Notes under the pieces: generated by a model | What the model was told of the DNA's origin: nothing | What the model saw: only the letters and a program-made list of their open reading frames with translations | The model's database searches: none | Part shown: positions 34,214-55,983 of the stretch, piece by piece | Numbering within the stretch: the stretch's first letter is position 1 | How the letters are laid out: every line of letters starts with the position of its first letter | Made by a program: the position numbers and the translations under genes | Origin: Escherichia coli | GTDB taxonomy: Bacteria; Pseudomonadota; Gammaproteobacteria; Enterobacterales; Enterobacteriaceae | Assembly: GCF_003334305.1 (NCBI RefSeq) | Contig: NZ_QOWS01000003.1 | Reading direction: 5' to 3' (one strand) | DNA length: 64,000 nucleotides

Positions 34214-34298
34214 GCCGAAGTGGCGAAATCGGTAGACGCAGTTGATTCAAAATCAACCGTAGAAATACGTGCCGGTTCGAGTCCGGCCTTCGGCACCA
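34214..34298 (+). tRNA. leuX: tRNA-Leu (anticodon CAA)
   Basis: 85 nt, gccgaagtggcgaaatcggtagacgcagttgattcaaaatcaaccgtagaaatacgtgccggttcgagtccggccttcggcacca. It has an acceptor stem gccgaag/cttcggc, anticodon loop tt-CAA-aa, a long variable arm, GGTTCGAGTCC in the T-arm and an encoded CCA. Confidence 0.97.
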
Positions 34299-34499
34299 CA
34301 TCGTATGCAAATCGAGTCGCTCAAGGGCGGCTTTTTTTGTGCCTGAAATCCAGTATCCGCAAGGCTTTCCTCGCTTTTTCACTCAACCTAAGTCAACCTG
34401 ATTCAATCTACATCAACTTACTGATGCGGGTACAACTGCGGGTATTTCCCGGTTCGATTATGTTTGTACCCACACAGGGCCCTTGAAAGGATACTCATC

Positions 34500-35764
34500 A
34501 TGGCTCTGAGTGATGTGAAGGTCCGTTCGGCTAAGCCGGAAGCAAAAGCCTATAAACTTACTGACGGTGAAGGCATGGTTTTGTTGGTCACCCTAATGGC
34601 TCCAAATACTGGCGACTTCGTTATCGTTTTGGCGGTAAGGAGAAGATGCTGGCGCTGGGGAAATACCCTGAAGTCTCGCTGGTCGATGCCAGAGGTCGCC
34701 GGGATGAAGCCCGTAAGTTGTTAGCTAACGGCGTCGATCCTAGTGAGAACAAGAAAGCTGTTAAGGTAGAGCATGAGCAAGAGGTGATAACGTTTGAAGT
34801 GGTAGCCAGAGAGTGGCACGCCAGCAATCAGAAGTGGTCTGCATCGCATAGCGCTCGTGTATTGAAAAGCCTCGAAGATAATCTCTTTGCTGCTATCGGT
34901 AAGCGGAACATTGCTGATCTGAAGACTCGGGATCTGCTTGTCCCCATCAAAGCGGTGGAGTCGTCTGGGCGTCTCGAAGTCGCTGCTCGTTTGCAGCAGC
35001 ATACTACCGCGATTATACGCTTTGCTGTACACAGTGGATTAATCGACTACAACCCCGCTCAAGAGATTGCTGGTGCGGTTGCTACGGCGAAAAGACAGCA
35101 TCGTGCTGCTCTGGAACTTAACCGCATTCCTGAATTGCTTCAACGCATCTATCACTATTCTGGCAGGCCGTTAACCCGACTGGCGGTTGAACTCACATTG
35201 TTAGTTTTCATCCGTTCAAGCGAGTTGCGTTTTGCTCGCTGGTCAGAAGTTGATTTTGATACTGCCATGTGGACGATTCCGGGAGAACGTGAGCCACTGG
35301 AGGGAGTTAAGCATTCTCAGCGTGGTTCGAAGATGCGGACTCCACATCTTGTACCCTTATCTCGACAAGCTCTCACCATTCTGGAAAAAATCAAAAGCAT
35401 GAGTGGAAACCGTGAGCTGATCTTCGTTGGTGATCACGATCCGCGTAAGCCAATGAGTGAGAATACGCTTAACAAGGCCTTGCGAGTGATGGGCTATGAC
35501 ACGAAAACGGAAGTGTGTGGACATGGTTTCAGGACGATGGCGTGTAGTTCTTTGATTGAATCGGGATTGTGGTCGAGGGATGCAGTAGAGCGGCAGATGA
35601 GTCATCAGGAACGTAGCTCAGTACGGGCGGCTTATATCCATAAGGCGGAACATCTTGGGGAGCGAATGTTGATGCTGCAGTGGTGGGCTGATTATCTGGA
35701 TGCGAATAGAATGGCGGCTATCACTCCATTTGACTATGCAAAGATTAATAGTTCTTTTCGATAA
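34500..35764 (+). pseudogene. P4/CP4-57-type tyrosine integrase with -1 frameshift near 34589-34591
   Basis: The N-terminus MALSDVKVRSAKPEAKAYKLTDGEGMVLLV (frame of 34500) continues only in another frame as (H)PNGSKYWRLRYRFGGKEKMLALGKYPEVSLVDAR..., which joins the 372-aa ORF. Catalytic HGFRTMA and RAAYIHKAEH are present downstream. Confidence 0.8.
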
Positions 35765-35820
35765 TTCTATCTAAGTATATGAATATTAACTGTTTTTTAA
35801 TTAAAGGCTTATAACTGAGA

Positions 35821-35850
35821 AGCCTCCGCCCTAATGGGGAGAGGCTTTTG
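35821..35850 (+). terminator. Putative terminator after the integrase gene
   Basis: agcctccgccctaatggggagaggct hairpin followed by tttt. Confidence 0.55.
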
Positions 35851-35965
35851 TCTTAACTCAATCAAGAAGGAAATCGTTATGTAAAACTTTATTTTTTTGT
35901 CCGGTATGTGAACGGAAGTGTTAAATATCCACTATGCCTTGTTCGCGCAATGGTCATCCTTTCAA

Positions 35966-37435
35966 TCAAATAACTCCAAGCTTTGCATACAATTCTTTTT
36001 TCTCTTTCATGCTGTTATCCAATGGTGCTACTCGCAATGCCGCTTTCAAATAAGCCGCAGCACCAGAGTAATCACGCATTTGCTCGCAAACTAAAATGAG
36101 TTGGCTTAACACATGGAACTTCATTGGAGTTGTTTGGTTTACTTTCTCCAATAGTACTCTTGCTTCAGAATATTTCGCTTCAAGGCCAAGGATAGATGAT
36201 TCTAAATACATGGTGGCCGCGTTTTCTGCTTCAGCTTGCTTTCGTTGCAACAGCCAGAAATTTGCTTGACTGATATTGCGTAACTGTAGGTTTGCCTTAA
36301 CTATCAACTCGAACAAAGCTGCTGGTTGAGTCAATTTACCCTCAAGTAAGATCGCTTTATTATCTTCTACAACTTTTTCAAAGTCGAATAAGCGATTGGC
36401 GCGATACAAGGCAATAAGTTGCTGATGTAAAGCTTGTAGATCTTTACTGCGGCTATACTCCTGCGACGCTAATTGAGCAGCTTTTTGGTAAGATTGATCG
36501 GACATTGCTTCAAGTACCGCACTTGACCAGTCCTGAGCAGGTTTAGTTTGAAAAACGGGAGCAATAGCACCAACTTTTAATTGCTTAGTGGCAGCAGAAT
36601 CAAATGCATGAATTAAGTCGGAAATAGTGGAAAAGCGATCCTCCGCTCGTTTTTGTAAACAAGTAAGAACCACTTGTTCCAGGTCCGTATGAATAGAGCT
36701 ATTAATCTCTGTCGGAAGCTTGAAAGGTGCGTGGCGCTGAACTTGTGCTGGCGTATCATGGGGCAGCTTTCCTGTCAGCAGCTGGTATAGCAAAACACCT
36801 AAGCTATAGATGTCGCCCAATAGTAGCTCTTCCAGGCTGCCTCTACGGCTATCGACGTTGGAGAACTCTGGGGCCGAATACAGCACAGTCCCGCCATTTT
36901 CACGGGTACGAACGTAAATTTCTTCTGGTAAAGCTGAGCTGCCAAAGTCCGTCAACTTCACCAGGTCCCGCTCTCCAACCAAAATGTTATGTGGCTTAAT
37001 ATCTCCATGAGATATTGGTACTGGTAATTCGGCCAAATAATGCACAGCACAGAGCACTTGACGATATATTCTGAACAACCGTTCATAGGTCTGGCCAAAA
37101 TTACGCTGCCTGTCATCGAGCTTTTGCGCCAGGGTTTGGCTGGGAAAATACTCCATTTCAATATAGAACCATTCATTATCTATACGGCCCATATCAAAAA
37201 TTTGCACAATATTTTCGTGCGGCTCGACGTTTAAAAGCTCTTTACCTTCGGCAAGCTGACGGTCTTCCCGAGTAATATCCTTAGGGATTTTTACTGCGAC
37301 AATTTTTCCATCTTTCAGGCGTTCCGCCCGCCATACCCAGCCATGGCTGCCATCACCAAGGCATTCAAGTAACAGGTATTTGTCACCAAGGCGTTTATTC
37401 GTCCCTGGCAAAAAATGTGCTGATTTTATATTCAC
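35966..37435 (-). CDS. Hanks-type Ser/Thr protein kinase with C-terminal helical (TPR-like) repeat domain; last gene of the nine-gene operon
   Basis: 489 aa with a GTG start overlapping the upstream stop (GTGA). Kinase subdomains are LGDGSHGWVW (Gly loop), VAVKIPK, HGDIKPHNILV, DFGSS, LYSAPE and DIYSLGVLLYQLLTG. The last roughly 200 aa are alpha-helical repeats. Confidence 0.85.
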   Translation of the reverse strand: MNIKSAHFLPGTNKRLGDKYLLLECLGDGSHGWVWRAERLKDGKIVAVKIPKDITREDRQLAEGKELLNVEPHENIVQIFDMGRIDNEWFYIEMEYFPSQTLAQKLDDRQRNFGQTYERLFRIYRQVLCAVHYLAELPVPISHGDIKPHNILVGERDLVKLTDFGSSALPEEIYVRTRENGGTVLYSAPEFSNVDSRRGSLEELLLGDIYSLGVLLYQLLTGKLPHDTPAQVQRHAPFKLPTEINSSIHTDLEQVVLTCLQKRAEDRFSTISDLIHAFDSAATKQLKVGAIAPVFQTKPAQDWSSAVLEAMSDQSYQKAAQLASQEYSRSKDLQALHQQLIALYRANRLFDFEKVVEDNKAILLEGKLTQPAALFELIVKANLQLRNISQANFWLLQRKQAEAENAATMYLESSILGLEAKYSEARVLLEKVNQTTPMKFHVLSQLILVCEQMRDYSGAAAYLKAALRVAPLDNSMKEKKELYAKLGVI

Positions 37436-37974
37436 ATCAACACCTCATAGTGAATTCTGTCCAAAACAATCATGTTCAGGTTTTTGATAAATAAAAAGCG
37501 ACTAAATACCACCTCAACATCAGGAGCGGCGATTACTTGGGTACCCGTGGACGAAGTAAAACCCATACGGCATATGTCTTTCAGTTTTTGAGTATCAGGT
37601 ACACCTACTAAGCCTTGGCTCCAGGCACTGAGGACCAGGGTTTTGGGGCAATGATTCCAGCGCTGTGCTGCTTCCAGTAAGTTTTTTAATTTTTCTTCCA
37701 GCTTTTGCTGCCCCTTCGCTGAACCATCAAAGCGTTCAAATTCGATTAAACACACAGGCGATGCAGAAGATTTATGAAACCAGCCCGAGTCAGAGCGAAT
37801 ATCAGCACCAAATGTCCCTGGAGCCGGGCATTCCACTACCGCCATAAATGACTGTTCATGCCCGAATGTATTCCAAACGCTACAGCCCAGGCTGTGGACC
37901 AATACATCCTGGTCCAATAGCTTACCGCTTGCTAAAAGTGGAAATGTCTCATTTACCCAGGCAACTTCAGGCAT
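37432..37974 (-). CDS. Hypothetical protein (about 180 aa); a possible nuclease-like fold is speculative
   Basis: The ATG at 37974 is preceded by AAGGTG, which overlaps the HerA-like stop (TAAGGTGCCTATG). The track GTG start at 38031 is less likely. The only hint of a PD-(D/E)xK-type site is ADIRSD...CLIEFERFDG...K. No motif was confidently recognised. Confidence 0.55.
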   Translation of the reverse strand: MPEVAWVNETFPLLASGKLLDQDVLVHSLGCSVWNTFGHEQSFMAVVECPAPGTFGADIRSDSGWFHKSSASPVCLIEFERFDGSAKGQQKLEEKLKNLLEAAQRWNHCPKTLVLSAWSQGLVGVPDTQKLKDICRMGFTSSTGTQVIAAPDVEVVFSRFLFIKNLNMIVLDRIHYEVLM

Positions 37975-37981: not shown

Positions 37982-39667
37982 TTAGCCACTGAAAGAGCCC
38001 CAAACACGCAGTACCTCTGGTGATTCACCACCGTGAATTAATGCCTTACTACCAACTTTAACAAGCAGTGGTGCAGGGATTGAACGACCACACACCAAAG
38101 CTTCACCGGTTGATAAACTCGGGAGTTCCTCCAGATCAGCTTTGCTCACCATATCTGATGCTTTAGCTATAAATCGTTGATCGTCAGGGTTCTTTAAGCG
38201 CATCGTAATTAGCGTATTGCACTGAGAGGTCACATCTGAATCTAATTTCGATGGACGCTGGCTCACAATGCCAAATCCAACGCCAAATTTACGACCTTCA
38301 CCAGCGATCTTTTTAATAATGCGGTGACTGACTGCGTTGCCGCCGGCCGGGGCAAAATTATGACCCTCTTCGTAAATGATAAAGCATGGGCGCAGCGGGT
38401 CCGTTTTGCTCGAGGCTGCTTTTAATATTTCACTAGATAACAGTGCACAAATGACTTGCTTAGCGGTATCACTCAAACCTTGTAAGTCAACAACGACTAA
38501 ACGCCCCTGTTGATTGCTCGGGCGACCCACCATTTTGTAAATATCAGTTGGCTCAGCCATTGTTGCGCTGTAAAAACTTTTAGCTTCATTAAGCACACGT
38601 GAAAGCTTCATCGAGGCGACGGCGGCACTACGGCCTGATAACGCCTTCGCCTCAGCTTCAGAAAGGTCGTCCCACTCTTTTAACTCTTCAATACCATCAC
38701 CTAATAAGAAGCGTAGGCGGTTAATATCTCGTGGCTCAGTCTTATCTGCAGAGCGCCAATAACGAATTGCAACATCGAGTACTCGTTGCTGCGGTTCCGT
38801 TAAGCCAGGTAATATTTCAGCAATATCGTCCATTTCAAAATGGTCAAACTGAAGCGCTAATGGCGTATTCTTACTGGCGTATTTATGTTTAAAAGATTCA
38901 TGCTGCGGCGAGTAAACCTGAATACCTGCACCGGCGGCTTGCAGCTTTTCAAAGGTCTGTTTTATCAGTGGCAGTGCTTCTTGATCACGCTTATCGTCAG
39001 TGGCTTCTAAGAAGCTTGAGAATTGCAGATTACCGCCAGCGAGGGCTTTACCGTATTCACCATGTGGGTCAAATACTACTACCGTACCGTTATTAACCGC
39101 AACTAAACGCTCAATAATGCGGCCAACTGTATAAGACTTACCTGAACCCGTCATTGCCAGAACAGCCAAATGCTCAGTGACCAACTTGTTCACGTCAATA
39201 AAAACAGGAACTGTATTCTCACCTTTGTCGTAGCCTACTAAGTTACCTAAGTGCAAACTGGAGTGTTCATTAAATTCGTAAAAATCACTCAAAAACTGAA
39301 AATCGACGGTTTCAACAGCGGTACCCGGGTTAAGCGGGCGACGTGGAATTTTGATTTGACGAGTAACAGGATCGCGGTAACCAACCAGCTCGACCTGAGC
39401 AAACATATTCTCACCAGTTACATTCGCACCGGGCAAAAGCTCAAGCTCGGTTACACCATCGCCAAAGCCGGCGTTATAGAGCATATTAGTACGGCTTATC
39501 TTGGTCACTCGCCCCAGTACGGCGACTTGCCCCTCATCTTTGCGTTCCTGGTGCATAATGCGTACAAACTCACCACGGCGTACTGAAAACGAGTCTTGTA
39601 CAACCATAGTTAACTGACTGGCATCACCAGTGTTACCGACTAATTTACCTAAAACTTTATAAGCCAT
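37982..39667 (-). CDS. HerA/FtsK-like (DUF87-type) P-loop ATPase
   Basis: 561 aa with an N-terminal barrel-like segment, Walker A LAMTGSGKSYTV and Walker B-like PCFIIYEEGHNFAP, the typical HerA arrangement. The start overlaps the upstream gene by 11 nt. Confidence 0.8.
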   Translation of the reverse strand: MAYKVLGKLVGNTGDASQLTMVVQDSFSVRRGEFVRIMHQERKDEGQVAVLGRVTKISRTNMLYNAGFGDGVTELELLPGANVTGENMFAQVELVGYRDPVTRQIKIPRRPLNPGTAVETVDFQFLSDFYEFNEHSSLHLGNLVGYDKGENTVPVFIDVNKLVTEHLAVLAMTGSGKSYTVGRIIERLVAVNNGTVVVFDPHGEYGKALAGGNLQFSSFLEATDDKRDQEALPLIKQTFEKLQAAGAGIQVYSPQHESFKHKYASKNTPLALQFDHFEMDDIAEILPGLTEPQQRVLDVAIRYWRSADKTEPRDINRLRFLLGDGIEELKEWDDLSEAEAKALSGRSAAVASMKLSRVLNEAKSFYSATMAEPTDIYKMVGRPSNQQGRLVVVDLQGLSDTAKQVICALLSSEILKAASSKTDPLRPCFIIYEEGHNFAPAGGNAVSHRIIKKIAGEGRKFGVGFGIVSQRPSKLDSDVTSQCNTLITMRLKNPDDQRFIAKASDMVSKADLEELPSLSTGEALVCGRSIPAPLLVKVGSKALIHGGESPEVLRVWGSFSG

Positions 39668-40814
39668 TATTCAATCCCTCATCGAGGCCTGCCAACCACC
39701 CTGCCTCAATATCATTATTCTTTAGTGCCTGGTGTAAACCCTGGCGATAAAACGTAGCAAATTTAGGTAAAATACCAAGCTGTTGATAACCAAGTAATTG
39801 TGGCAACGGCATTGCATTACCTTTGTTTTGCATATCCAGCACCATCAGGCGAGAGGCAACTAAATCGAGATCAGCACTTTTCCATTCTGGTTCGTCACCC
39901 GCTAATTGCACCATTTTTATCTGTCCACCTCGGGCACTACGGAAGTGAAAACCAATTAGACCTTGCTTAGCTTCAATATTGGGTTCAATGCGCTTTTCTT
40001 GTTCAGACAAACGAAATGCGATGGTGCGCGAATAGTTGCCTAAAATGCCATTGATAAATCGCAAATCTCCCACGCCAACCAAACTTTCATCCAGTCCTTC
40101 CAGATTTTGCATCAACTCTTTAGAAAACCCATCAGATGCTAAAATTTGTTTGCGTCCTTGTTCGGTACGTAAATCTTGTTTGGCGATACTTACAATGGCA
40201 CTAAAGCGCTCAGCCAAAATGCTCGCAAGTACTACACCATTTTGATTCCAGGGAAAAATTCTGGAGCGATGGTTTTGCCAAAAAGTTTCTATCACTTGTC
40301 TGGTTTTTTCGTACTCTTGTTTATGACGGACATTTCTCTCCAGCGGAGCCATATCCCGTGCTAAAAACAACGGCGTATCCAGCAAAATTAAATCGCCAGG
40401 CTCATAACCTAAAAGTTTTTTCTCAACTAACTGATAAGCCTGACGAATTTCAATTAAATCAAGCCGTTTACGCTGAGCTTCAAAATCAATATCATCCAGT
40501 TCTGATACCGAGTCGCTACCCACCGTGCTGACTTTATTGTCATCTATTAACAAATCTGTGCGCACTGCTGCACTGGCATAAATAAAACCACCCAATACCT
40601 TGTCTAAGCACGATTTAGTCGCAATACCGGCTACGCGTAAATTAACAATTGTGGGCTTGGGGACCGCTTTCACTAAGCCAGCATCACGGAATAGCGGCGC
40701 CACTTGCTCAATATCACGGACCTGTTTAAGCAAGCGTCCTGCACTTCCCGGTAAGCGAAGCTGGCTATCGATGGCGAGCGATTGCGCTAAATTCATCGTT
40801 TTGTTCTCATTCAT
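39657..40814 (-). CDS. Hypothetical protein (about 385 aa) in the nuclease-partner slot upstream of HerA
   Basis: The ATG at 40814 lies 2 nt after the upstream TAA. There is no clear catalytic motif. LILLDTPLFL faintly recalls the NurA hhhDGxL motif. The gene position matches NurA, DUF4297 or SIR2 partners in HerA systems. Confidence 0.5.
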   Translation of the reverse strand: MNENKTMNLAQSLAIDSQLRLPGSAGRLLKQVRDIEQVAPLFRDAGLVKAVPKPTIVNLRVAGIATKSCLDKVLGGFIYASAAVRTDLLIDDNKVSTVGSDSVSELDDIDFEAQRKRLDLIEIRQAYQLVEKKLLGYEPGDLILLDTPLFLARDMAPLERNVRHKQEYEKTRQVIETFWQNHRSRIFPWNQNGVVLASILAERFSAIVSIAKQDLRTEQGRKQILASDGFSKELMQNLEGLDESLVGVGDLRFINGILGNYSRTIAFRLSEQEKRIEPNIEAKQGLIGFHFRSARGGQIKMVQLAGDEPEWKSADLDLVASRLMVLDMQNKGNAMPLPQLLGYQQLGILPKFATFYRQGLHQALKNNDIEAGWLAGLDEGLNNGL

Positions 40815-40816
40815 GC

Positions 40817-41665
40817 TTATAGCGTTCCTGTGTGTAGCTGCTCGCCAAGTAATGGGGCATAAGCCCAATATTGCGAGGCTTGTAGGCATGTTTTACCGGT
40901 AGCTGTTATGCCCGCGTCGTCGATAAAATCGTGCTGCCGCAACATCTCACCCCGCTTGACAATATCAAGGCTATTAACATCAAACATCAGCTTAACCGCA
41001 TTATGCTCAGACAACGCTTGTAAGTTCATGCCACCGCCAGCGTAGAGTAATAGCAATACAACTAGATCGTGCTTATCTGGCGTGTAGTCAGTTGATGGCG
41101 CTTTAGGTTCGATTATTCGTTCAGCAATGCCTGCATGGTCCACAAACCAATTCAACCAGCTCACCAGGAGCTCACTATGATCGAGTAAAGTCAGCGACCA
41201 CAAAGGTAACGTGGTAAAGGCTAATAGCCCACTGTTGCTGTGTTTTCGTATGTAGCGGGTATGCACTACATCACCGGCCTGGTGCTGGTAGCGATCTGCG
41301 CTGCCAGTAAAGCCAGCAATAGCCTGGTCTGTTTCACTGGCTAGCAAAGCGGTTAGCCCCGGTTCCTGCCCCCTCAAGCTCGCTGGTACTAACTGCCAAT
41401 CCAGTGGATAGGGCAATTGCGCTAATAAGGTAAATTGTTCTGCTTTCAGGTTTATTACCAAAGCGGCACAACCTGCCTGCATAGCCCAGTGATACAGGTG
41501 CTGCATAGTATTAGCGTCAGTCAACTCTTCTGCTTGCACTATTAACAAACCGCTGGCTGGCGGCGAGCTAATCCAATCCTTCATTAAGGGGGTAGCCCCC
41601 GCAACAGTTTGCAAAAAACGGCCTTTACGATTACTGGCCAGTGCCGCAGATAAATAACGACTCAT
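40817..41665 (-). CDS. Hypothetical protein (about 282 aa)
   Basis: The ATG at 41665 is preceded by a GAGGTGA Shine-Dalgarno sequence that overlaps the TAG of the 1428-aa gene. No recognisable motif. Confidence 0.55.
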   Translation of the reverse strand: MSRYLSAALASNRKGRFLQTVAGATPLMKDWISSPPASGLLIVQAEELTDANTMQHLYHWAMQAGCAALVINLKAEQFTLLAQLPYPLDWQLVPASLRGQEPGLTALLASETDQAIAGFTGSADRYQHQAGDVVHTRYIRKHSNSGLLAFTTLPLWSLTLLDHSELLVSWLNWFVDHAGIAERIIEPKAPSTDYTPDKHDLVVLLLLYAGGGMNLQALSEHNAVKLMFDVNSLDIVKRGEMLRQHDFIDDAGITATGKTCLQASQYWAYAPLLGEQLHTGTL

Positions 41666-47262: not shown

Positions 47263-48738
47263 TTACTCTTCAGCCTCCGCTTGCGCCGCCTCTTCCAGCA
47301 AACTGTATAACTCATCCACATCGCTAAATAGCGGTGTGGCACCTTCAATGGCATAACCCTCAGCGCTCAGTTTGCTTAAAATCGCTTGATCAAAGCTGCT
47401 GTCGCCATCTTCCAGGGCTTGTTGGGCCTGGATTAGTTGTTGCTCAGTCAGTTGGCCTTCGATTAATGACTCAACTAGAGTTTTGGCAGATGCTGTTAAC
47501 TTTTTTGCATATGCTGCCGTAGTAACGGCTAGTCTCAGCTTACTTCCTATTTCTCTATTCTTCGCTATGTCAATCGGAATCAGAATATTTAACAGGTTTT
47601 CTGAAGTCACTTTTGGTACAACGCTGCCAGTAGTCACACCTTTCCAACACGGAAAGTGTTTATCCAGGAACCTACAAATAGACTCAATATCATATTCATC
47701 TTTTACCTTTAAAACCCAAACATGGTTGTTTGCCCAAAACTTTCCATCAGCTACATTTGCACAGCCAATAGAGCCATCTTGCGCAATAATCAGATATTTA
47801 CCGTTGAAATTGAATTCGGTATGAGTATCTATTGGACCTGATGCGCCATAGTAAAAATATGGTCCGGGTACTCTGTCTTCCGATTTAATAGGGTCGCCAC
47901 ATTTGCATTTACTAATGAAATTAGATAGTTTTGATGAATTCCTAAAGGTCATTTGACTATCGGCCGCACGTGCAAACTCAGGAGCTAAAGACACTGCTGA
48001 TAATACCTGTTGTTTCATTCTTCTAGGTTTCAATGTTAATGAATCAACAAGGTTGAAGTGAAATAAATCTTTAATTTTTCTATCAGCCATTCCTTCAAGT
48101 CGTTTCGCCCAAGCGCGTAACTGCTCGGCTTGGCGAACTTTATCCCCGATGTATTTTTGGGCTAGAGGTAAAACTTTAGGAACCGCTAGCGAGCGGACAC
48201 TTGGGAAGTCAATTGCAGGGCGAGTTGCGCCATATGCTTCCTTCCAGATCGCTACTTGTCCGGTTTTGCTATTCAAATATGCCACCAAGAAATAGGCGTC
48301 AACTTTTTTGGGATCGGGCTTGAATCTGACTGAGTGCTGACTAATGTTGGCCGGTAGATGTTTAGCTGACACAACAGCCGATTTACCAAATTTTGCACCA
48401 GTAATCGTAAGTAAAACGTCGCCATCCACTAATCGGCTGCGCTTTAATTTTTCATCATCTTCATCGTTAATAAAAACAGCTTCTTCAGCTTGCAAGAACA
48501 TTTCTTCAACTTCAGAAGTGCGATAAAACTTAACACGGCCTTTTTCTAAATAATTTGCTCCTAAAGGTGTTGCGCCACTAGCCACCCCGCGCTTTGAATC
48601 AATTACCGCTTCTAGGGGCAAAGCACCTAGGTTGTCTTTTATCTTATTAATTTGTCTTTCAAATCGCGGTTGATAGTGCCAAGGATCAATCCGCCTTTCA
48701 GACAATTGTTCGGGTGTTCTTTTAAAAATAGTTGCCAT
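47263..48738 (-). CDS. Type I-like restriction-modification specificity (HsdS-like) subunit with two target-recognition domains
   Basis: About 491 aa. TRD1 carries RIDPWHY..., GDVLLTITGAKFGKSAVV and NISQHSVRF. A conserved helical spacer (QKYIGDKVRQAEQLRAWAKRLE) follows, then a second TRD (YYGASGPI...IIAQDGSIG...NNHVWVLK) and a C-terminal helix plus acidic tail. The ATG overlaps the methyltransferase TGA (TGATG). Confidence 0.8.
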   Translation of the reverse strand: MATIFKRTPEQLSERRIDPWHYQPRFERQINKIKDNLGALPLEAVIDSKRGVASGATPLGANYLEKGRVKFYRTSEVEEMFLQAEEAVFINDEDDEKLKRSRLVDGDVLLTITGAKFGKSAVVSAKHLPANISQHSVRFKPDPKKVDAYFLVAYLNSKTGQVAIWKEAYGATRPAIDFPSVRSLAVPKVLPLAQKYIGDKVRQAEQLRAWAKRLEGMADRKIKDLFHFNLVDSLTLKPRRMKQQVLSAVSLAPEFARAADSQMTFRNSSKLSNFISKCKCGDPIKSEDRVPGPYFYYGASGPIDTHTEFNFNGKYLIIAQDGSIGCANVADGKFWANNHVWVLKVKDEYDIESICRFLDKHFPCWKGVTTGSVVPKVTSENLLNILIPIDIAKNREIGSKLRLAVTTAAYAKKLTASAKTLVESLIEGQLTEQQLIQAQQALEDGDSSFDQAILSKLSAEGYAIEGATPLFSDVDELYSLLEEAAQAEAEE

Positions 48739-50885
48739 CACTCACCCCGCTTATAAGCCGATACAATCTTATCCAGATCGTTTGCGACACCGGCGTTATA
48801 GTCTTCGATATTGTTTTTCACCACATAACCCAATGTTTCAGCCACTGCCATAAACACGTCGGTTTGTGGCTCGGGCAAAAATTGCTCTGGCTGGTTGGGG
48901 TTAGCATGGCGTTTTTGTAAATACAAAATCGAGGTTTTGGCCCCCGTACCGGAGAGTTTAAAGCAGTCGCTCGGCAATGAAATTACTGCTTTTACAATAG
49001 CTTTACCGCCAACAAACTCGCCGGTTTTTTCGTCTTTTTTCCCCATAATGTACTCACGGACATAACGGTCGCCGGAGTTACATAAAATACCATCAGGCAG
49101 CACTATTAACAGGCGGCCACCGGGTTTAAGCAGTTGCAGGCAGCGGTCGATAAAAAGTACTGCTGGGTCAATAGTGGCACCTACCGGTTGCCAGTTGCCC
49201 TTGCTATCGGGCTTGCTGCCCAGCGCGAGCCCTGCGGTTGTAGGCTGCAGGCTGTAAAACGGCTTTTTATCAGTCCCGCCCGTTCTGCGCAAATCGGTAC
49301 GGTAGCCCGCCCATTTAGGCTCGCCGTTTTCATCCAGCTCTAAATCACCGATATCCTGCCACTTCATTTTCACGTGGTCATACCAGGCGTTGTAGCTATC
49401 AACGACTTTTTTGGTCGGACGAAAACCACCGAGCACTTGCTCCATATTGGCTTCGTAATTGGCTTTTGAGTTTTGACCATTTTTGCCTTTATCAAATTTA
49501 GGCGTACCGAACGGCGGGTTGGTGCAAATCAGGTCAAAGCTATTCGGCTTCAGAGCGTTAGTAGTGAGTGAGTTGTCGGTATAAAAAATCTGCGCTTTGG
49601 GGGCACCTTGCAATGCCATATTCACGCGGGCCAGCATTACCATGCGTGGTGCAGCATCGGCACCGGTAAATGCACAGTCGCGTAATTTTTGTTTCAATGA
49701 TTCTTTTTTATCGTCGGCCAGCACCAGCTTAAAATCGATCCATTTATCAATCTGGCTTAACGCCACCGAGCCAAAACCAAAGGAGCCACAGGTGGGGTCG
49801 CAGAAACGAAAATCGCCATTGGCTAAGCGCGATCGCATTTCATCGTCATCGTCGATGTCGTGCATAGCAATTTCTAGCATGGCCTGTTTTACTGGGTTTG
49901 GTGTTAAATAAACGCCAAGGCCACCTTTGGATTCAAAGTTAGCGCGTAGGAATACATCAAACACTCTGCCTAGTAAATCTCCTGACACATCAGCCAACGT
50001 GCCGTGTTCTTTCGCGATTTTACCGTCGTTGGTTTTTACCGGACCCAGGTTTTGTATTGCTTCCAGCAAATCCTGATAGTTTTTCGCAACAGACAGTCGC
50101 AGGTGTGTTTCTTTACTAAAGATGGGGTTACGTGAGCCATCATCTGAGATCACAACGTAGTTTTCGTGGCTTTTAAATTCCTCAAAGGCGGCTTTGATTT
50201 GGGCAACGGCTTTATCGCCGTGGCTCTCCACATATTGCCAATCAAAGACATCACGAAAACGCAGGGTATTTCCCTCATCATCTTTAAAGGTAAGGTCTTC
50301 ATCGTGATGCAGGCGGAAAGTTTCTAAAAACAGAAGCTTAGCTACTTCTTCAATAATGTCGTTCTTGTCGTTTACCTTGTCTTTGGTAACGCGATAAACA
50401 TTTTCATGGAAGGCATCAAATCGCTGCATTAAGCGTGTATAAACACGCATCGACCAGCGAAAGGTTGGATCACGCTCCATGCGATCAAAGCTACGTAATT
50501 CTTCCAGACCAGGCAGGGTATCTGCACCGTGGGTACCGTCAGATCCATCGGCACCGAACAAGGCCAAAATACGTTGGTTCAAGCCATCGTCCACAACGGC
50601 ATATACTGGCCAGTCACCTTCGATATCACTTAACAGCTGATAGGCTAAATCATCAAACTTTGCAGTGTCAGCGGCGTATTCCCAATGGCCTTCTGTCAGC
50701 GCAATCAACATGACTGGTGGCGTTAAGTTGCCTTCAACCAGGCCTTGAATGAGACCAGCCTTGGCGAATTCATGCTCGGGTAATTCGACCAATGGCTGAG
50801 TAAACTCGGAGTGCTGTTTGACCAGTTTATTGAACAGTGCTTCTAGCTGCTGTTGCGGGTCTTGTTTTTTTGCTTCTTTTGCCAT
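48738..50885 (-). CDS. N6-adenine DNA methyltransferase (gamma class, HsdM-like) with N-terminal extension of about 330 aa
   Basis: 715 aa with motif I FCDPTCGSFGFG, motif IV LICTNPPFG, and an HsdM-like segment DLLGRVFDVFLR...GVYLTPNPV upstream. Confidence 0.85.
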   Translation of the reverse strand: MAKEAKKQDPQQQLEALFNKLVKQHSEFTQPLVELPEHEFAKAGLIQGLVEGNLTPPVMLIALTEGHWEYAADTAKFDDLAYQLLSDIEGDWPVYAVVDDGLNQRILALFGADGSDGTHGADTLPGLEELRSFDRMERDPTFRWSMRVYTRLMQRFDAFHENVYRVTKDKVNDKNDIIEEVAKLLFLETFRLHHDEDLTFKDDEGNTLRFRDVFDWQYVESHGDKAVAQIKAAFEEFKSHENYVVISDDGSRNPIFSKETHLRLSVAKNYQDLLEAIQNLGPVKTNDGKIAKEHGTLADVSGDLLGRVFDVFLRANFESKGGLGVYLTPNPVKQAMLEIAMHDIDDDDEMRSRLANGDFRFCDPTCGSFGFGSVALSQIDKWIDFKLVLADDKKESLKQKLRDCAFTGADAAPRMVMLARVNMALQGAPKAQIFYTDNSLTTNALKPNSFDLICTNPPFGTPKFDKGKNGQNSKANYEANMEQVLGGFRPTKKVVDSYNAWYDHVKMKWQDIGDLELDENGEPKWAGYRTDLRRTGGTDKKPFYSLQPTTAGLALGSKPDSKGNWQPVGATIDPAVLFIDRCLQLLKPGGRLLIVLPDGILCNSGDRYVREYIMGKKDEKTGEFVGGKAIVKAVISLPSDCFKLSGTGAKTSILYLQKRHANPNQPEQFLPEPQTDVFMAVAETLGYVVKNNIEDYNAGVANDLDKIVSAYKRGE

Positions 50886-50935: not shown

Positions 50936-51322
50936 CTAATTTATCAGTACCAGCAAGGGGCCTTTAATCTCTATCTGCGCGTGCTTCTGTGCCAGTTTGC
51001 GTATCTGCTGTTCACTGGTCGTAATACCAGCAGGGAGCTTTTTCAGTACTTGTGCAAGGGGCATGCGCCCACCAGCTTGATGCAACAATGATACCAAATG
51101 TGCCGCGATATCAGGTATAACCTGGTACGTTGCCGTTGTGGGCCCTTTTAGATGATTACTTTGAGGCAATGAGGCAAGCCATAGCGAAACTTGAGACTGG
51201 CTAAAGCCAAGTGTTTGCCAGAGGGTTTGGTTCTCATTAAATACAACGGCGGCGCTTCTGGGAGTTGCTGTTTGCTGAGTTATTAGTTGTTCCAGGCTTT
51301 GTCGCTGGTATTCATGGGTCAT
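50936..51322 (-). CDS. Hypothetical 128-aa protein translationally coupled to McrC
   Basis: Its ATG overlaps the McrC TGA (ATGA). No motif was recognised. It ends 50 nt upstream of the methyltransferase ATG. Confidence 0.55.
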   Translation of the reverse strand: MTHEYQRQSLEQLITQQTATPRSAAVVFNENQTLWQTLGFSQSQVSLWLASLPQSNHLKGPTTATYQVIPDIAAHLVSLLHQAGGRMPLAQVLKKLPAGITTSEQQIRKLAQKHAQIEIKGPLLVLIN

Positions 51323-52662
51323 CTCATGCCTCCACTATAGGATACTGAAGCAGCCATCCGATCCAGTTTGGGGCTCATTGTACAGGACACGTCATTCGGC
51401 CACATCATCCTCTCACCGCGTTTTGCCATTATCCGGTATGGCACAACCCATAATTTTAAAGTCTCCGAGAAAGCAAAATGCTGCGCTATAGGTTGGCTAA
51501 AGTCATCATGCGCAGGGTAAATCAGATACATTTCGCCATTCCCACCAAGATATTTTTGTCCGTAGGCAAACATTTGATAGAAGTCAGCTTGTGCCAGTCC
51601 ATAGAGTGATTTTGTCTGCTGGCTGCTATTCACCAGCTTCCATTTTGTATCCATCACCATTTCGGTTTGAACTGGTTTGTGTGATTGAATCAGCAAGTCG
51701 GGGCGAAGCTTAAAGCAATCTTTAAGTCCATGCTTTACCAAAGAATAAGTTGCTGCTTGAGGTAAAACTTTGAGGTGAGGTGGTAACTCGTCGGGTAGGG
51801 TCTGTGCCACAAAGGATTCAAATACCGCTTCCATAGGGAACAAAAGTGATATCGCTTTGGTGTTTCCCTGCAAAGCACTCGGGCTCATTCCCCTCAGGAT
51901 CAATTGCGCCCATGCCATTGGCTCGTTGTAATGAGCCATACCACGCTCGAGGCGTAAGTTGTTTATATCACGTTCAATATCCCGGCTAAGTGGAATACCG
52001 TCAAACGCAAAACGCAGTTCGTAAAGCCAGCGTTGATTATCTGATGACAGCTGCAGACTAAGAAGCTTATCTAGTGCGGAGTGTAAGAGCCGATTGGCTG
52101 CACAATCAGGCATGTAGTCATCATAATCGACACAAAACTTATGGCGATTCACCGCGTTATGTCGCAGCTGTGCAGAAAGCATCAGCTTGCCCTTCATAAA
52201 AGCCAGATTACCTTGCTTGCTCACATAGTCGGAGCGTAAACCCTGTTTAAGCAATTGGCTGACGCTATGCAAAAACTGGTTAATAAAAATCTCAAGCAAA
52301 GGCATACGCTGAGCCTGAAGAGTGGCTTGCTGGGTTTGAATATGTCGGAACCCAGGCAGATGGCTTAGCATCGTCAGCAATGTTTGACGTGCATTAGCCG
52401 CTGTGAGGTTTTTACCAACCTTGGGCAGTATCTCAAGCTGGAAACCGTGAGGTGTTGAAAGCATCCCTGCGTAGTTTTGAACCTGAAGCAATTTGAAGCC
52501 TGAGCGAGAGGTGAGTTTGAGGAACTGGCTCCCTTGATTACTTGCCAGGCTAAGCGCTTCTAAATAATTAAAGACCTGTGGAGGCACCGGTTTTGCGCCA
52601 ACTGAAGCCGCTTTTCCACTCCCCAAGAGGTCATATTCAAAAACGGAGATAACTTCACCCAT
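51319..52662 (-). CDS. McrC-like endonuclease subunit
   Basis: 447 aa immediately downstream of, and overlapping, the McrB-like gene. The PD-(D/E)xK-type motif RPDLLI...EMVMDTKWK resembles the McrC catalytic core. Confidence 0.75.
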   Translation of the reverse strand: MGEVISVFEYDLLGSGKAASVGAKPVPPQVFNYLEALSLASNQGSQFLKLTSRSGFKLLQVQNYAGMLSTPHGFQLEILPKVGKNLTAANARQTLLTMLSHLPGFRHIQTQQATLQAQRMPLLEIFINQFLHSVSQLLKQGLRSDYVSKQGNLAFMKGKLMLSAQLRHNAVNRHKFCVDYDDYMPDCAANRLLHSALDKLLSLQLSSDNQRWLYELRFAFDGIPLSRDIERDINNLRLERGMAHYNEPMAWAQLILRGMSPSALQGNTKAISLLFPMEAVFESFVAQTLPDELPPHLKVLPQAATYSLVKHGLKDCFKLRPDLLIQSHKPVQTEMVMDTKWKLVNSSQQTKSLYGLAQADFYQMFAYGQKYLGGNGEMYLIYPAHDDFSQPIAQHFAFSETLKLWVVPYRIMAKRGERMMWPNDVSCTMSPKLDRMAASVSYSGGMR

Positions 52663-54730
52663 GATTTACTGCCTGCTCATCAAGGGGAGTCTGTTGGGGC
52701 TGATAAATTGAACGATAAGCCTGTGGAATATTCCAGATCTCTTGATCGAAATCTTTGAGCTCATAAGCTGTTGATTGCTGATCATGGCGTCGTAAACCAT
52801 GGTTGTTACCAAAAAGCGTATCGAGATCGTCGGTTTTCTCAATCACGAATTGCAGGTTGTCGTCTTGCTTTTGATTGTCTGCCAGCACCAACCGGATCTT
52901 GTTCCAGTCATCGAAAAAGTATTCCTGTAAAAGCGGAATGATCTTTTTCTGGAATGCGATCTTCAATTGTTTAAACGCAGCTTCTTCATCACCGGCATCG
53001 AGTGCATTTTTTACCGGCATAAAGAACGCATGCCCCAGCGTATGTTCACGATCGTAAAGAGCCTCGATGCGGCTATTGAGTTTCTCTAACAACGACTCGA
53101 GCTCTATGCCTTTCACCTTAGCTTCACTCAGTAAAGAGAGATCAGGCATCATTTCGACAAAGTCAAAGCGACGGCGCAAAGCCGTGTCCATCAGAGCTAA
53201 AGAACGGTCCGCTGTATTCATGGCTCCGATGATATCGACATTGCCGGGTACGCTGAAGTGATCACCGCTATAAGCCAGTTGCAGGCTCATCGCATTGGGC
53301 ATGCCTGCACGCTTGTCTACTTCAATGAGTGAGATTAGTTCACCAAAGATCTTGGATATGTTACCGCGATTGATCTCATCAATGAAAATGGCGTAGCGAT
53401 GTCCTGGATCGGCATTCGCACGTTGGCAAAGGCGCATAAAGATACCCGGCTCAATGGGATAAGAGATATTGCCACTCTCGTCAGAGCGAGCGCGTATACC
53501 TTCAATAAATTCTTCATAGCCGTAAGATTGGTGGAACGTAACCACCGCAAAACGCTGGATGGCTTCGGCAGATTTAGGGCCACGTTTAAGTTCGGCGTAG
53601 AGCTCTACCAAATCCTCCACTTGCTCGAGCTGTGAATCAACTAGAAACCATTCGCTGTTATCTGTTTTGTTAAATACGGCAGGCTCACGCCGATTCTTAT
53701 AATCAACGGTTAACGACTCGGGAACTGTATAGGATTGCAAAGCTGCCCAGGCAGTATTCGATAGATTGCCATTACGACCGTTTAATAATGCCTTACGTTG
53801 AAACCACATATGTTCAATAATTTGGCGAACTTTCGCTCGTTTCCCAAGATCGAGCAGCACCAGCGTTATAACCTGCATCCAGTTCAACGATTCAAGGCGA
53901 GAATCCAGCCAGGCATCACGATCAGCGGGAACAGCATGAGAAGTGTACTCTTTCATTTTTTGCTGCAACCTGAAGGTCTTGCCAGTGCCAGGGGGGCCAA
54001 AGAAGATCACGTTAGTTGGTGAATGTAGGATGATCTTGTTCTCGATGGGCTCACTGCGGGTTATGGATGTAGTGCTAGCTACTTTCTCCTGCTTTTGTTC
54101 ATTATCGCGTTCACGGAGCAATTCATAGAGATGCCAGATGGCCATATTCACATAATAAGGATCTGTATCAGGAGATTGGGCGTGTATGGCTTGTTTCAAT
54201 TCATAGTTTTTCTGTAACCAATTTCCGGTCAGTACCAAACCGAGATGGAAGTGCTGATTTAAGAATTCTGCTGCTTTATTAAAAGCATTCTCATCCACAG
54301 TACTGGTGTAGTTTTCTGGCGAGAACGCGGCAAAGACGCGATTTCTCAAACTCCAATACATACGCTTGAGAAGTCCGTTTTCTTTAGCTTGTTGAAGTGC
54401 ATTGCCAACATATTGGTAAGTTTCTTCATCCGGCTGTTGCCGAATTCGTTCAGTTAGTTCTCTAAGCAGTGGCAGGCTTTGCTGATATTCTGCTAAGGAT
54501 GGAACGCCCTGGCGAATACTTGCAATGCCGTTGTCACGCTCATACCAAAGCTGTTTGACCAGACCATCTGTTGCAGGCTCAGCAAAAGTTGAGGTTTGCT
54601 GTAGCAAAGTCGTAAATGCACGGTATCGCTGATACCATCTGGAAGCTGTGTAATTTTTATCTTTCGCCAGGGCATCAATCAATTCACTAATCGTTAGCCT
54701 ACCTGCTTCGACACTATCTACAAGAGTCAT
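52655..54730 (-). CDS. McrB-like AAA+ GTPase subunit with non-K-12 N-terminal domain
   Basis: 691 aa with Walker A FFGPPGTGKT, the McrB signature FIDEINRGNISKIFGELISLIE, and IIGAMNTADRSLALMDTALRRRFDF. The first roughly 230 aa are unrelated to what I recall of the EcoKMcrB DNA-binding domain. Confidence 0.85.
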   Translation of the reverse strand: MTLVDSVEAGRLTISELIDALAKDKNYTASRWYQRYRAFTTLLQQTSTFAEPATDGLVKQLWYERDNGIASIRQGVPSLAEYQQSLPLLRELTERIRQQPDEETYQYVGNALQQAKENGLLKRMYWSLRNRVFAAFSPENYTSTVDENAFNKAAEFLNQHFHLGLVLTGNWLQKNYELKQAIHAQSPDTDPYYVNMAIWHLYELLRERDNEQKQEKVASTTSITRSEPIENKIILHSPTNVIFFGPPGTGKTFRLQQKMKEYTSHAVPADRDAWLDSRLESLNWMQVITLVLLDLGKRAKVRQIIEHMWFQRKALLNGRNGNLSNTAWAALQSYTVPESLTVDYKNRREPAVFNKTDNSEWFLVDSQLEQVEDLVELYAELKRGPKSAEAIQRFAVVTFHQSYGYEEFIEGIRARSDESGNISYPIEPGIFMRLCQRANADPGHRYAIFIDEINRGNISKIFGELISLIEVDKRAGMPNAMSLQLAYSGDHFSVPGNVDIIGAMNTADRSLALMDTALRRRFDFVEMMPDLSLLSEAKVKGIELESLLEKLNSRIEALYDREHTLGHAFFMPVKNALDAGDEEAAFKQLKIAFQKKIIPLLQEYFFDDWNKIRLVLADNQKQDDNLQFVIEKTDDLDTLFGNNHGLRRHDQQSTAYELKDFDQEIWNIPQAYRSIYQPQQTPLDEQAVNHG

Positions 54731-54899
54731 CGTGACTTTTCCTCTGTTGTGACATTACTTATTTTTTAATTAATATGAGGTATTCTAACTATATTGAGTT
54801 AATCGTTGTGACAAGTGCCTGTTATATATACAACTATCTGTTAACTCAGCTCTAATTTAAATACAATGTAAGGTTGTAGGGTGAATGCTGTTATCAACC

Positions 54900-55772
54900 T
54901 CACCCCCTAAAAACCTCTTTCCGATGCCACTCTACAAACACCTCATAAGGGTAATTTTTACGCACCTGCGGCAACGCAATAGTTTTCCCGTCAAAATCCC
55001 AGAATAATCTCTCAACGATCCCTCCGCCGTTTACCGCATCTGATACCAGTACCCGCATATTTTCATCCAGGCCAATCGATCCTTTATCAAAGGCTTTATG
55101 GTGAATTGCGCAAAGCGCCAGGCCATTAGGAATTTCACAAGGACCTCCTTGCTGTTTCCATTTTATATGCGCCGCTTCCAACGCTACGGTGGTGTCGTCG
55201 TGGCGCATATTAAAGCCACATATCGCGCACTGGTAGTTATAAGCGCGTAATACATTTTTGCGAAATAAAGGGTCGCGCTGTTTACGGATTTGCTGGAGAT
55301 CAAAACCCAGCTCGTCAGCAATTTCTTCCTGAATACTCTCGGTGAAGTGCGCTTCGAGTATCTGTTGCGCCAGAGTATTGATGAGTTTTTTATTGCCGGT
55401 TACCAGGGCGTAGTGCTGTTCATCGAAACCGCCTGCAACGTGGTATTCGTTCAGTTCCTTCACTGGCGGTTGTCGGCTGCTCCCTGCTGTTGAGCAAAGC
55501 TCGGCATTGTGTAATTGCCAGAATCCGTCGCCTTGTAATCGCCAGAACGGCATATCAGGTCGGTAATGTGAACGCTGTGGCCCAAAACGTTCCAGTAAAC
55601 TGTGCAGAGGTTCGTAGATTTCCGATCCATAATCGAAAAGGCGTGGATGTCCATTCAGGTATCCCGCTAATACGTATAGCAATAACAATGGCTTATGCGG
55701 CGCGCGCTGTTCACCTTTGTGCCAGATTTTTATGTTGGCAATTGCCTGCTGTAGCGATTTACTGGAAGCCAT
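54900..55772 (-). CDS. HNH_2-family endonuclease with N-terminal putative DNA-reader domain (candidate modification-dependent nuclease)
   Basis: The C-terminus has CAICGF...LEAAHIKWKQQGG...NGLALCAIHHKAFDKG, an HNH with a Cys pair. The preferred ATG at 55772 (MASSKSLQQA...) has an AGGGA Shine-Dalgarno sequence. The track ORF extends to 55829. Confidence 0.75.
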   Translation of the reverse strand: MASSKSLQQAIANIKIWHKGEQRAPHKPLLLLYVLAGYLNGHPRLFDYGSEIYEPLHSLLERFGPQRSHYRPDMPFWRLQGDGFWQLHNAELCSTAGSSRQPPVKELNEYHVAGGFDEQHYALVTGNKKLINTLAQQILEAHFTESIQEEIADELGFDLQQIRKQRDPLFRKNVLRAYNYQCAICGFNMRHDDTTVALEAAHIKWKQQGGPCEIPNGLALCAIHHKAFDKGSIGLDENMRVLVSDAVNGGGIVERLFWDFDGKTIALPQVRKNYPYEVFVEWHRKEVFRG

Positions 55773-55983
55773 TGATATCCCTGGCAGTGAAATAATTGCG
55801 ATCATGCTCGCAAATTTTCGGCTGTTCAAGCCTGCAAGTGAAGATATATTACTTTGATCTCATTTGTTTTTTTGCTGCCTGTGTACCCTAATTGCCATGC
55901 GATGTTGCACCGACGCAAACCACCTTTTACGCCGGAGGAGTTAAAAGCGTTGATGGATGCGAATAAATCAAATTAATGAACGC

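Follow-up and report, generated by a model that had tools for sequence, protein, structure and literature searches.

The leuX–nanS interval

The window analyzed here is a 64-kb stretch of Escherichia coli contig NZ_QOWS01000003.1, and the subject of this report is the island of defence genes that lies in it between leuX and nanS. leuX, encoding tRNA-Leu(CAA), is the sole tRNA gene that ARAGORN finds in the window. Its sequence is the same as in K-12 through the CCA end and divergent beyond, and the island starts right at that end, at 34299, showing the tRNA adjacency that is one mark of a genomic island. The interval runs from 34299 to 55983 (21,685 bp), with yjgR-ahr-leuX at its left and nanS at its right. 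Over 34000–56500 the window is 100% identical to E. coli strain A7, and our own scans for open reading frames (ORFs) and domains gave the same content as the annotation of A7 by the NCBI Prokaryotic Genome Annotation Pipeline (PGAP): a plus-strand integrase, 13 intact minus-strand ORFs, a fragment of an HNH gene, and nanS. Within the island, Rfam reported no RNA family besides the tRNA. The features are listed below, with protein lengths in amino acids (aa).

34214–34298, plus strand: leuX, tRNA-Leu(CAA), the anchor of the leuX hotspot (ARAGORN and Rfam tRNA)
34276–34298, no strand assigned: leuX 3′ end, attachment core reused by incoming elements (NCTC9088 satellite repeat; E. coli W junction)
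34500–35764, plus strand: P4-family tyrosine integrase, frameshifted pseudogene (Pfam Arm-DNA-bind_3, Phage_int_M, Phage_integrase)
35966–37435, minus strand: Ser/Thr protein kinase, at the end of the ten-gene system (Pfam Pkinase, 2e-34; PADLOC mad6, 1e-45)
37432–37974, minus strand: 180-aa conserved hypothetical protein (no family match; colinear homologue in 54 loci)
37982–39667, minus strand: HerA-type hexameric translocase/ATPase (Pfam DUF87, 1e-44, and HAS-barrel)
39657–40814, minus strand: predicted NurA-like nuclease, 385 aa (gene overlaps that of HerA by 11 nt; UniRef names and fold match)
40817–41665, minus strand: 282-aa hypothetical protein (no family match; fastest-evolving of the system, 25–91% identity across loci)
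41676–45962, minus strand: 1428-aa P-loop NTPase, signature protein of the system (invariant GxGKS at 68–72 and VLDELE at 219–224)
45959–47260, minus strand: 433-aa hypothetical protein (no family match; colinear in 56 loci)
47263–48738, minus strand: Type I-like specificity (S) subunit (Pfam Methylase_S; PADLOC Specificity_I, 8e-164)
48738–50885, minus strand: N6-adenine DNA methyltransferase, HsdM-like (Pfam N6_Mtase; PADLOC MTase_I, 1577 bits; NPPF at 456)
50936–51322, minus strand: 128-aa protein that opens the ten-gene core (precedes the methyltransferase in 41 loci, whether or not McrBC is present)
51319–52662, minus strand: McrC-family nuclease subunit (Pfam McrBC, 2e-96; candidate D...D-x-K motif at residue 315)
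52655–54730, minus strand: McrB-family AAA+ GTPase (Pfam AAA_5; Walker A at 245, Walker B at 448, NTAD at 505)
54900–55772, minus strand: SBD-HNH endonuclease, by family dependent on phosphorothioated DNA (NCBIfam PT-DNA_restrict, Pfam HNH_2)
55872–55976, plus strand: C-terminal fragment of another HNH endonuclease gene, 105 bp (PGAP ‘HNH endonuclease, incomplete’ in A7 and W)
55984–56964, minus strand: nanS, right flank (intact 326-aa ORF; 98.3% DNA identity to K-12 from 55981 on)

PGAP calls nanS an incomplete pseudogene in A7, W and NCTC9088; here it is an unbroken ORF whose product is 97% identical to K-12 NanS.

The original prediction described the cargo as an HNH nuclease, a McrBC-like module and a nine-gene methyltransferase operon, with every intact ORF defence-like. 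All three modules are present, but the operon has ten genes, the 128-aa ORF being part of it rather than of McrBC. All 13 intact ORFs are defence-associated, five of them (encoding the 180-, 282-, 1428-, 433- and 128-aa proteins) by operon membership only, since they have no recognizable domain. With that reservation, the picture of a tRNA-anchored, compositionally foreign island with wholly defence-associated cargo was borne out.

An occupant of the leuX defence hotspot

leuX has been catalogued as defence hotspot #37 of E. coli, a site given over to defence systems; the passages that deal with it report 31 system types and usually no recognizable mobile element except an integrase (Hochhauser et al. 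2023, PMC10121019; reviewed in PMC12707154). By its leuX anchor and defence cargo, the present island belongs to this hotspot, and it further resembles the published cases in having an arm-type integrase at the left end and a site that is almost always filled. It differs in that its combination of a MADS-like methylation-associated system, McrBC and an SBD-HNH endonuclease is not among the systems named in those passages, and in that the integrase of this strain is a pseudogene. The interval 34299–55983 is probably this strain's occupant of the leuX defence hotspot, a layered island that is immobile here. Because leuX has already been published as hotspot #37, this island-level reading is not new.

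Occupancy of the site was examined with a chimeric leuX+nanS query against 5426 complete E. coli genomes, the census set for all genome counts given here. leuX and nanS lie within ~1.3 kb of each other in only one genome, so the site is almost never empty under that test. The single near-adjacent case is E. coli Nissle 1917 (NZ_CP007799.1, 4974690–4976859), in which an IS630-family transposase (IS, insertion sequence) lies between the two genes. A second Nissle assembly (NZ_CP058217.1) has, at leuX or elsewhere, a McrBC homologue split by an IS3-family element, which suggests that the near-adjacency reflects either a deletion or a difference between assemblies. The segment 34000–56500 is covered to at least 80% in 207 of the 5426 genomes, and this sporadic spread of the full locus, together with its atypical composition, is of the kind expected for a genomic island.

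In K-12 (MG1655), the leuX–nanS interval is ~40.1 kb long and contains intB, IS2, IS4, nanXY, IS911/IS30/IS600, fec, IS1, yjhU-I, sgc, yjhPQ-topAI and yjhR, the content of the element KpLE2. The absence of the KpLE2 cargo from our interval, predicted earlier, held when the whole K-12 locus was searched against the window by BLAST: the 38 kb of cargo (4497924–4536267, intB to the yjhR–nanS spacer) gave no match except a 77-bp repeat. The island and KpLE2 have in common the leuX insertion site, an integrase (~75% nucleotide identity to intB) and an SBD-HNH relic beside nanS; unlike KpLE2, the island is devoid of fec, sgc, yjh, nanXY and IS elements. Collinearity had been expected to resume at nanS. 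High-identity collinearity (98.3%) does restart at 55981, but similarity to K-12 restarts already at 55505, because K-12 has kept a relic that takes in the HNH gene's 5′ end and the region upstream of it (88% identity, window 55505–55752 and 55813–55872). The second HNH fragment (55872–55976) is absent from K-12. As for the proposal that the island replaces KpLE2, it does occupy the site that KpLE2 holds in K-12, but with the site almost never empty the two are better seen as alternative occupants of one hotspot.

Just left of leuX, yjgR is followed directly by ahr (31367–34018). The idn (L-idonate) genes, which separate these two in K-12, are absent, and K-12 idnD and idnK have no match in the window.

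Three layers with different distributions

The island is a mosaic, made up of an integrase layer, an 18.9-kb block of McrBC plus ten genes, and an older SBD-HNH resident. The first layer is a tyrosine integrase of the P4 family, a type that targets the leuX 3′ end, inactivated here by a 1-bp deletion. The second is a twelve-gene block, its last ten genes forming a probable MADS-like methylation-associated system, with a Type IV McrBC joined at the front in Enterobacterales. The third is the older resident beside nanS, a predicted phosphorothioate-dependent SBD-HNH Type IV endonuclease together with the fragment of another HNH gene.

Distributions in the census set differ from layer to layer. 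The integrase allele is found in 271 genomes. For the methyltransferase operon, 268 genomes have some match and 207 a near-complete one (~4–5% of complete E. coli), whereas McrBC occurs in 1015 genomes and falls mainly into two allele classes. A complete SBD-HNH gene is found in 1310 genomes and some match to it in 4937, so that it is present whole or as a relic in 91%.

The middle layer extends from ~35890 to ~54800 and comprises twelve tightly packed minus-strand genes, McrB through the Ser/Thr kinase, with a largest intergenic gap of 50 nt and overlaps at five junctions. This block is shared between genera. Its DNA is 96.2% and 90.1% identical to that of Pantoea and 96.0% and 90.5% to that of Erwinia, and the homologous loci of Ewingella and Rosenbergiella likewise fall in the range of 90–96%. 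Across these four genera, the part from the kinase to the S gene is 93–96% identical to the window and the part from the methyltransferase to McrB 81–92%. The homology stops at ~54730–54804, short of the HNH gene; SBD-HNH is an older resident next to nanS, outside the inter-genus block. Among the other-species loci scanned, these four genera are the only ones in which McrBC lies ahead of the ten-gene unit.

Sequence type 131 (ST131; O25b:H4) has a McrBC of 95% identity that lacks the 128-aa gene and lies in a much larger leuX island with K-12-type yjh and sgc genes. In one ST131 locus (L062, 15329–23350), this McrBC allele has as its neighbour a Type IIS restriction-modification system of the Eco31I family that includes two methyltransferases.

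Integrase, attachment sites and mobility

An integrase gene had been placed directly after leuX. An integrase-family ORF is indeed found there (34500–35764), but in this strain it is a frameshifted pseudogene: one T is missing at ~34588 relative to the intact allele of NCTC9088, and PGAP labels the gene ‘frameshifted’ in the identical region of A7. Probing the census genomes with the 61 nt over the lesion returned 272 records in 271 genomes, 104 with the frameshift allele and 163 in frame, indicating that the lesion is real and inherited but lineage-specific; E. coli W, like NCTC9088, has an intact integrase. A functional integrase, often looked for in a genomic island, is thus missing from this window.

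Flanking attL and attR repeats were not seen either. A pattern search allowing up to three mismatches, combined with a general repeat search, revealed no second copy of the leuX 3′ end (attR) downstream in the window, and in gapped local alignments over 35.8–64 kb the best core match was no better than those of shuffled cores. In other strains, elements that arrived later have reused the leuX core. NCTC9088 has a P4-like satellite inserted between leuX and the island, with a degenerate copy of the core, TTTGAGTCCGGCCTTC-GCACCA, at its right end. In E. coli W, a CP4-like element occupies the same position, and homology to the window begins at 34281, inside the tRNA 3′ end. With its integrase broken and attR missing, the island is fixed in this strain.

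These results bear on a different reading, implied by the original prediction, in which a single intact integrative element, its integrase and cargo enclosed by attL and attR, fills the interval, having inserted at leuX and being excisable as a unit. We consider this improbable. In its favour, the integrase abuts leuX, the integrase allele and the ten-gene operon co-occur nearly one-to-one (271 and 268 genomes), the frame is intact in 163 of the 272 records with the allele, and related loci in Ewingella and Pseudomonas also have a P4-type integrase beyond the kinase. However, the integrase of this strain is frameshifted, no attR was found anywhere downstream in the window, and SBD-HNH and McrBC are far more widely distributed than the integrase. 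Moreover, the block abuts leuX in Pantoea agglomerans (96% DNA identity) without an integrase, and in Erwinia it lies at tRNA-Arg. The unlike distributions of the parts, the end of the shared block before the HNH gene, the absence of attR and the broken integrase together argue that the island is not a single integrase-borne element, and that part of the earlier account is withdrawn in favour of a layered island.

The context of the homologous loci is similarly varied. Besides tRNA-Arg in Erwinia, they lie beside tmRNA, tRNA-Val or tRNA-Ser genes, and most have no tRNA within 10 kb. Blocks at non-tRNA sites without an integrase, named at the outset as an observation that would count against a tRNA-anchored island, are therefore partly found outside E. 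coli, given the integrase-free Pantoea locus and the many distant loci with no tRNA within 10 kb. Of 69 ORFs scanned in related loci on the downstream side of the kinase, 7 encode tyrosine integrases; others encode transposases, DarT and AbiEii-type ATPases.

Base composition

The claim that the island is more AT-rich than the core was upheld once numbers were computed. Compared with 26 upstream core genes, the 14 island genes have lower GC content (0.468 versus 0.521) and lower GC content at third codon positions (0.452 versus 0.573), and their codon similarity to the local core is 0.551, compared to 0.690 for the core genes (Mann-Whitney P ∼1e-5 for each contrast). A composition equal to that of the core, which would speak against foreign origin, was thus not seen relative to the 26 genes, but the nan–fim flank is as AT-rich as the island: nanS, nanM, nanC, fimB and fimE have a GC content of 0.452. 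Hence composition cannot mark the right edge.

Composition was also tried as a guide to the donor lineage and rejected for that use. Within the clade that holds the E. coli version, GC content is 0.458–0.472 in every host sampled, with flanks that are GC-richer or GC-poorer; as the clade value is constant whatever the flank, no donor can be named. Plasmids contain only fragments of the block, indicating that the block is not plasmid-borne.

A conserved ten-gene system

A scan of one genome per species for the 1428-aa protein yielded 59 loci. Gene content and order are common to ~50 of them, in Proteobacteria, Cyanobacteria, Acidobacteria and Fibrobacter. Since the 128-aa gene is always found ahead of the methyltransferase gene, even though most loci are without McrBC, the conserved unit consists of ten genes. 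In the window, the start of the 128-aa gene overlaps the McrC stop codon (ATGA), and ST131 and Nissle have a McrBC allele that lacks the gene.

In three non-enterobacterial loci (L026:2799–4502, L028:3096–4601 and L034:2870–4399) and ~11 more, a conserved gene encoding ~460–570 aa lies directly upstream of the 128-aa gene, with start overlap or close abutment, in the position otherwise held by McrBC or by a WYL gene. Its product belongs to no Pfam family and has no sequence similarity to McrC or McrB.

At the modification end of the operon, the S gene shows a break in DNA homology (∼47490–48740) relative to E. coli W, Pantoea, Ewingella and Rosenbergiella, the pattern expected of target-recognition-domain swapping. 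E. coli carriers of the operon fall into coverage classes of 100, 96 and 92%. At the other end, the kinase has the full catalytic motif set (GDGSHGWV, VAVK, HGDIKPHN, DFG and APE). HerA is the best conserved of the ten (73–99% identity across loci). Its top NCBIfam match is the double-strand-break-repair HerA (200 bits), and it is closer to repair-type HerA than to the HerA of Sir2 or DUF4297 defence pairs.

The second best conserved gene encodes the 385-aa protein. Several of its homologues bear the UniRef name ‘NurA domain-containing protein’, and the protein has invariant acidic residues, including D146 in LILLDTP. An AlphaFold2 model was obtained with a pLDDT (predicted local distance difference test) score of 72.8 and a predicted template modelling (pTM) score of 0.75, and when this model was compared with the PDB by Foldseek, all of the top ten matches were NurA, including 2ygk (E = 6e-10) and solved HerA–NurA complexes. 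PDB profile searches with the 433-aa and 385-aa proteins returned nothing significant, so that the NurA link comes from the fold comparison and the UniRef names. The 385-aa gene likely encodes a NurA-like nuclease that is paired with HerA as the effector of the system, given the modelled fold. The hallmark of a HerA–NurA pair, an ATPase with HAS-barrel and DUF87 beside a NurA fold, is present at the level of prediction.

The 1428-aa protein has no match in Pfam, PADLOC or NCBIfam. Its 467 homologues are nearly all ∼1428 aa long and unannotated. A fold assignment was attempted and abandoned: the AlphaFold2 model of residues 1–640 was poor in the conserved P-loop regions (pLDDT 63.7), and Foldseek gave nothing below E = 0.78. 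Low-stringency Pfam searches with the small hypothetical proteins, the McrB N-terminus and the kinase C-terminus produced only sub-threshold hints of winged-helix (including in the 128-aa protein) and TPR domains. When promoters and terminators were scanned for, fewer sites turned up than in shuffled sequence, and the scan hence says nothing about transcription units.

McrBC and SBD-HNH modules

McrB carries the AAA+ GTPase motifs (Walker A, Walker B and NxxD) and has a McrC partner, as expected for a Type IV McrBC enzyme. About 125 residues separate Walker A (245) from the rest of the AAA_5 match (from 389). The NCBIfam McrB match is limited to residues 389–612 (148 bits versus a cut-off of 637), and McrC scores 95 bits against the K-12 McrC model (cut-off 338). 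With both subunits below the K-12 equivalog cut-offs, membership is at the family level only. The module is like K-12 McrBC in pairing a McrB AAA+ GTPase core with a McrC nuclease, but only the GTPase core of McrB matches, and residues 1–230 match no domain or family. A census of McrBC has described a recurrent branch associated with methyltransferase genes (Bell et al. 2024, PMC11090510).

The neighbouring SBD-HNH protein matches NF045808 over residues 6–289 with 437 bits (cut-off 180) and contains HNH_2, which places it in the family of phosphorothioated-DNA-dependent endonucleases.

Relationship of the ten-gene system to described systems

MADS (mad1-8) has been validated in Pseudomonas aeruginosa, according to the preprint that describes it, the supplementary notes of which outline a second, putative MADS-like system of 11 genes, Madl1–11, in the same species (Maestri et al., 10.1101/2023.03.30.534895). 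As set out there, a WYL regulator, methyltransferase, S subunit, ATPase, helicase/translocase and kinase occupy positions 1, 3, 4, 6, 9 and 11, and MADS-like islands in P. aeruginosa also hold a Type IV restriction enzyme and an integrase (10.1101/2023.03.30.534895).

Counting Madl1 as missing, all five enzyme positions (3, 4, 6, 9 and 11) of this described order fit the operon, which has the methyltransferase, S subunit, ATPase, HerA-type translocase and kinase in that sequence with hypothetical genes interspersed. A first gene of the WYL/helix-turn-helix type was not found. The Madl1 WYL regulator of the described system is missing here and McrBC is in that position, but a WYL gene is upstream in five related loci. 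The NurA-like gene has a P. aeruginosa homologue (68% identity), and on Pseudomonas contigs that encode a 67%-identical counterpart of the 385-aa protein the genes are arranged in this order too, with the Type IV enzyme Mrr and a P4-type integrase after them. On these three grounds (the enzyme positions, the WYL gene in five related loci and the Pseudomonas gene order), we classify the operon as a probable MADS-like system, matched to its prototype through the gene order described in the preprint.

Is the operon instead a system that is already defined, namely canonical MADS, BREX type 2/Pgl or ordinary Type I restriction-modification? Among curated models, the kinase is best matched by MADS6, the methyltransferase by MADS2 and the S subunit by MADS5, the kinase domain also matches PglW, and the PADLOC models MTase_I and Specificity_I score very high. 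In addition, the operon is like MADS in combining a self-marking methyltransferase and S subunit with a Ser/Thr kinase and a HerA-like ATPase at a defence hotspot; in MADS, loss of mad5 alone is reported to be lethal. However, the MADS scores are far under the NCBIfam cut-offs (117 versus 460 bits for the kinase with MADS6, 112 versus 720 for the methyltransferase with MADS2, and 90 versus 400 for the S subunit). Canonical MADS requires Mad6, Mad7 and Mad8 (the authors' MacSyFinder model; NCBIfam equivalogs), but here the kinase is below the cut-off, Mad7 is missing, and the HerA match to mad8 (7e-26) ranks behind eight generic HerA models, this HerA being nearer to the repair type than to mad8. 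No island protein matches mad3, mad4 or mad7 in PADLOC or NCBIfam. Counterparts of Mad3 (AbiEii/Toprim), Mad4 (DUF4276) and Mad7 (DptG-like) are thus lacking, and the predicted NurA-like nuclease and the 1428-aa NTPase are found instead. Canonical MADS was rejected on these scores and absences. BREX type 2/Pgl was rejected because Pfam and PADLOC gave no match to PglZ, BrxC/PglY or PglX, with only the kinase domain matching PglW. Ordinary Type I restriction-modification was rejected because the island has M- and S-like genes but no HsdR or ResIII helicase-nuclease. It is highly improbable, then, that the operon is one of these defined systems.

HerA–NurA is the classical DNA end-resection machine of archaea and Deinococcus, and HerA joined to an effector is a known theme in defence, as in the HerA–Sir2 and HerA–DUF4297 pairs. 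The present genes are like those of the end-resection complex in that HerA and NurA-fold genes are adjacent and overlap, but unlike all of these cases the pair sits inside a methylation-associated ten-gene operon. Our literature search found no description of a HerA–NurA pair as a defence effector and no experimental characterization of the ten-gene system. That the HerA, NurA and kinase genes serve host DNA repair or signalling, leaving the island not purely defensive, would agree with the end-resection role of HerA–NurA and with the best NCBIfam match of this HerA, but has very little probability, because the genes are locked in a colinear operon with a methyltransferase and S subunit in ∼50 loci, because that operon is sporadic (∼4–5% of E. 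coli genomes), compositionally foreign and located beside tRNA or tmRNA genes and near integrases, transposases, DarT, AbiEii-type ATPases and Mrr, and because its S-subunit recognition domains are shuffled in the style of restriction systems.

Proposed mechanism

We propose that the methyltransferase and S subunit of the MADS-like system would place N6-methyladenine (m6A) on host DNA at a bipartite site. Incoming DNA without this mark would be recognized with the help of the large NTPase and passed to the HerA–NurA translocase-nuclease for degradation, which the kinase may regulate or for which it may serve as a back-up effector. McrBC and SBD-HNH would act on DNA that carries foreign base or backbone modifications. 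Taking the targets of McrBC, SBD-HNH and the ten-gene system together, the island would cover unmodified, base-modified and phosphorothioated invaders.

A bolder version is that the twelve-gene block in Enterobacterales operates as one integrated machine, McrBC being translationally coupled to the first core gene. McrBC would sense foreign-modified DNA, the methyltransferase, S subunit and large NTPase would sense DNA lacking host m6A, and both inputs would feed a single kinase-gated HerA–NurA engine. We regard this version as rather unlikely.

Several points weigh against the picture of a layered, immobile defence island that carries a MADS-like system. The NurA model is of moderate quality (pLDDT 72.8, TM scores of 0.4–0.55), the Walker motifs are what suggests a role for the 1428-aa NTPase, and the five proteins named above have no assignable domain. 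Transcription as a single operon is deduced from gene spacing, the specificities of McrBC and SBD-HNH are those expected from family membership, and the antiphage or anti-plasmid role of the ten-gene system is a prediction. The label ‘MADS-like’ comes from supplementary notes to a preprint, with likeness judged by description. Finally, the integrase frame is intact in ∼60% of carriers, and the island may still move in other strains.

Other features of the window

The most AT-rich stretch of the window (18619–20208; GC content 0.31 at 19–20 kb) lies between tabA and argF; its gene is annotated by PGAP as ‘DNA-binding protein’, frameshifted, with an internal stop. For genes upstream of 17236–18044, the coordinates taken from A7 are off by 1 bp. 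The window thus departs from A7 by a single-base indel near bdcR, a gene that is frameshifted in A7 according to PGAP. Outside the island, Rfam detected Ysr276 in the pepA region (28047–28241), the magnesium riboswitch of the mgtA leader (10598–10713) and naRNA4 (345–422), all ordinary for E. coli.

Implications

At the level of the island, these data add little, namely one further occupant of a published defence hotspot. They do illustrate how such a hotspot is built up, with an old resident at one edge, an inter-genus block in the middle and newcomers at the tRNA end. The part worth following up is the cargo, a ten-gene methylation-associated system that ranges from Proteobacteria to Cyanobacteria and is present in ∼4–5% of complete E. 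coli genomes, among them that of W, a laboratory strain. If the integrated machine were real, it would be a HerA–NurA-based restriction system of a kind not yet described experimentally. The predicted NurA-like nuclease paired with HerA provides a concrete, testable candidate for the effector, and E. coli W a tractable host.

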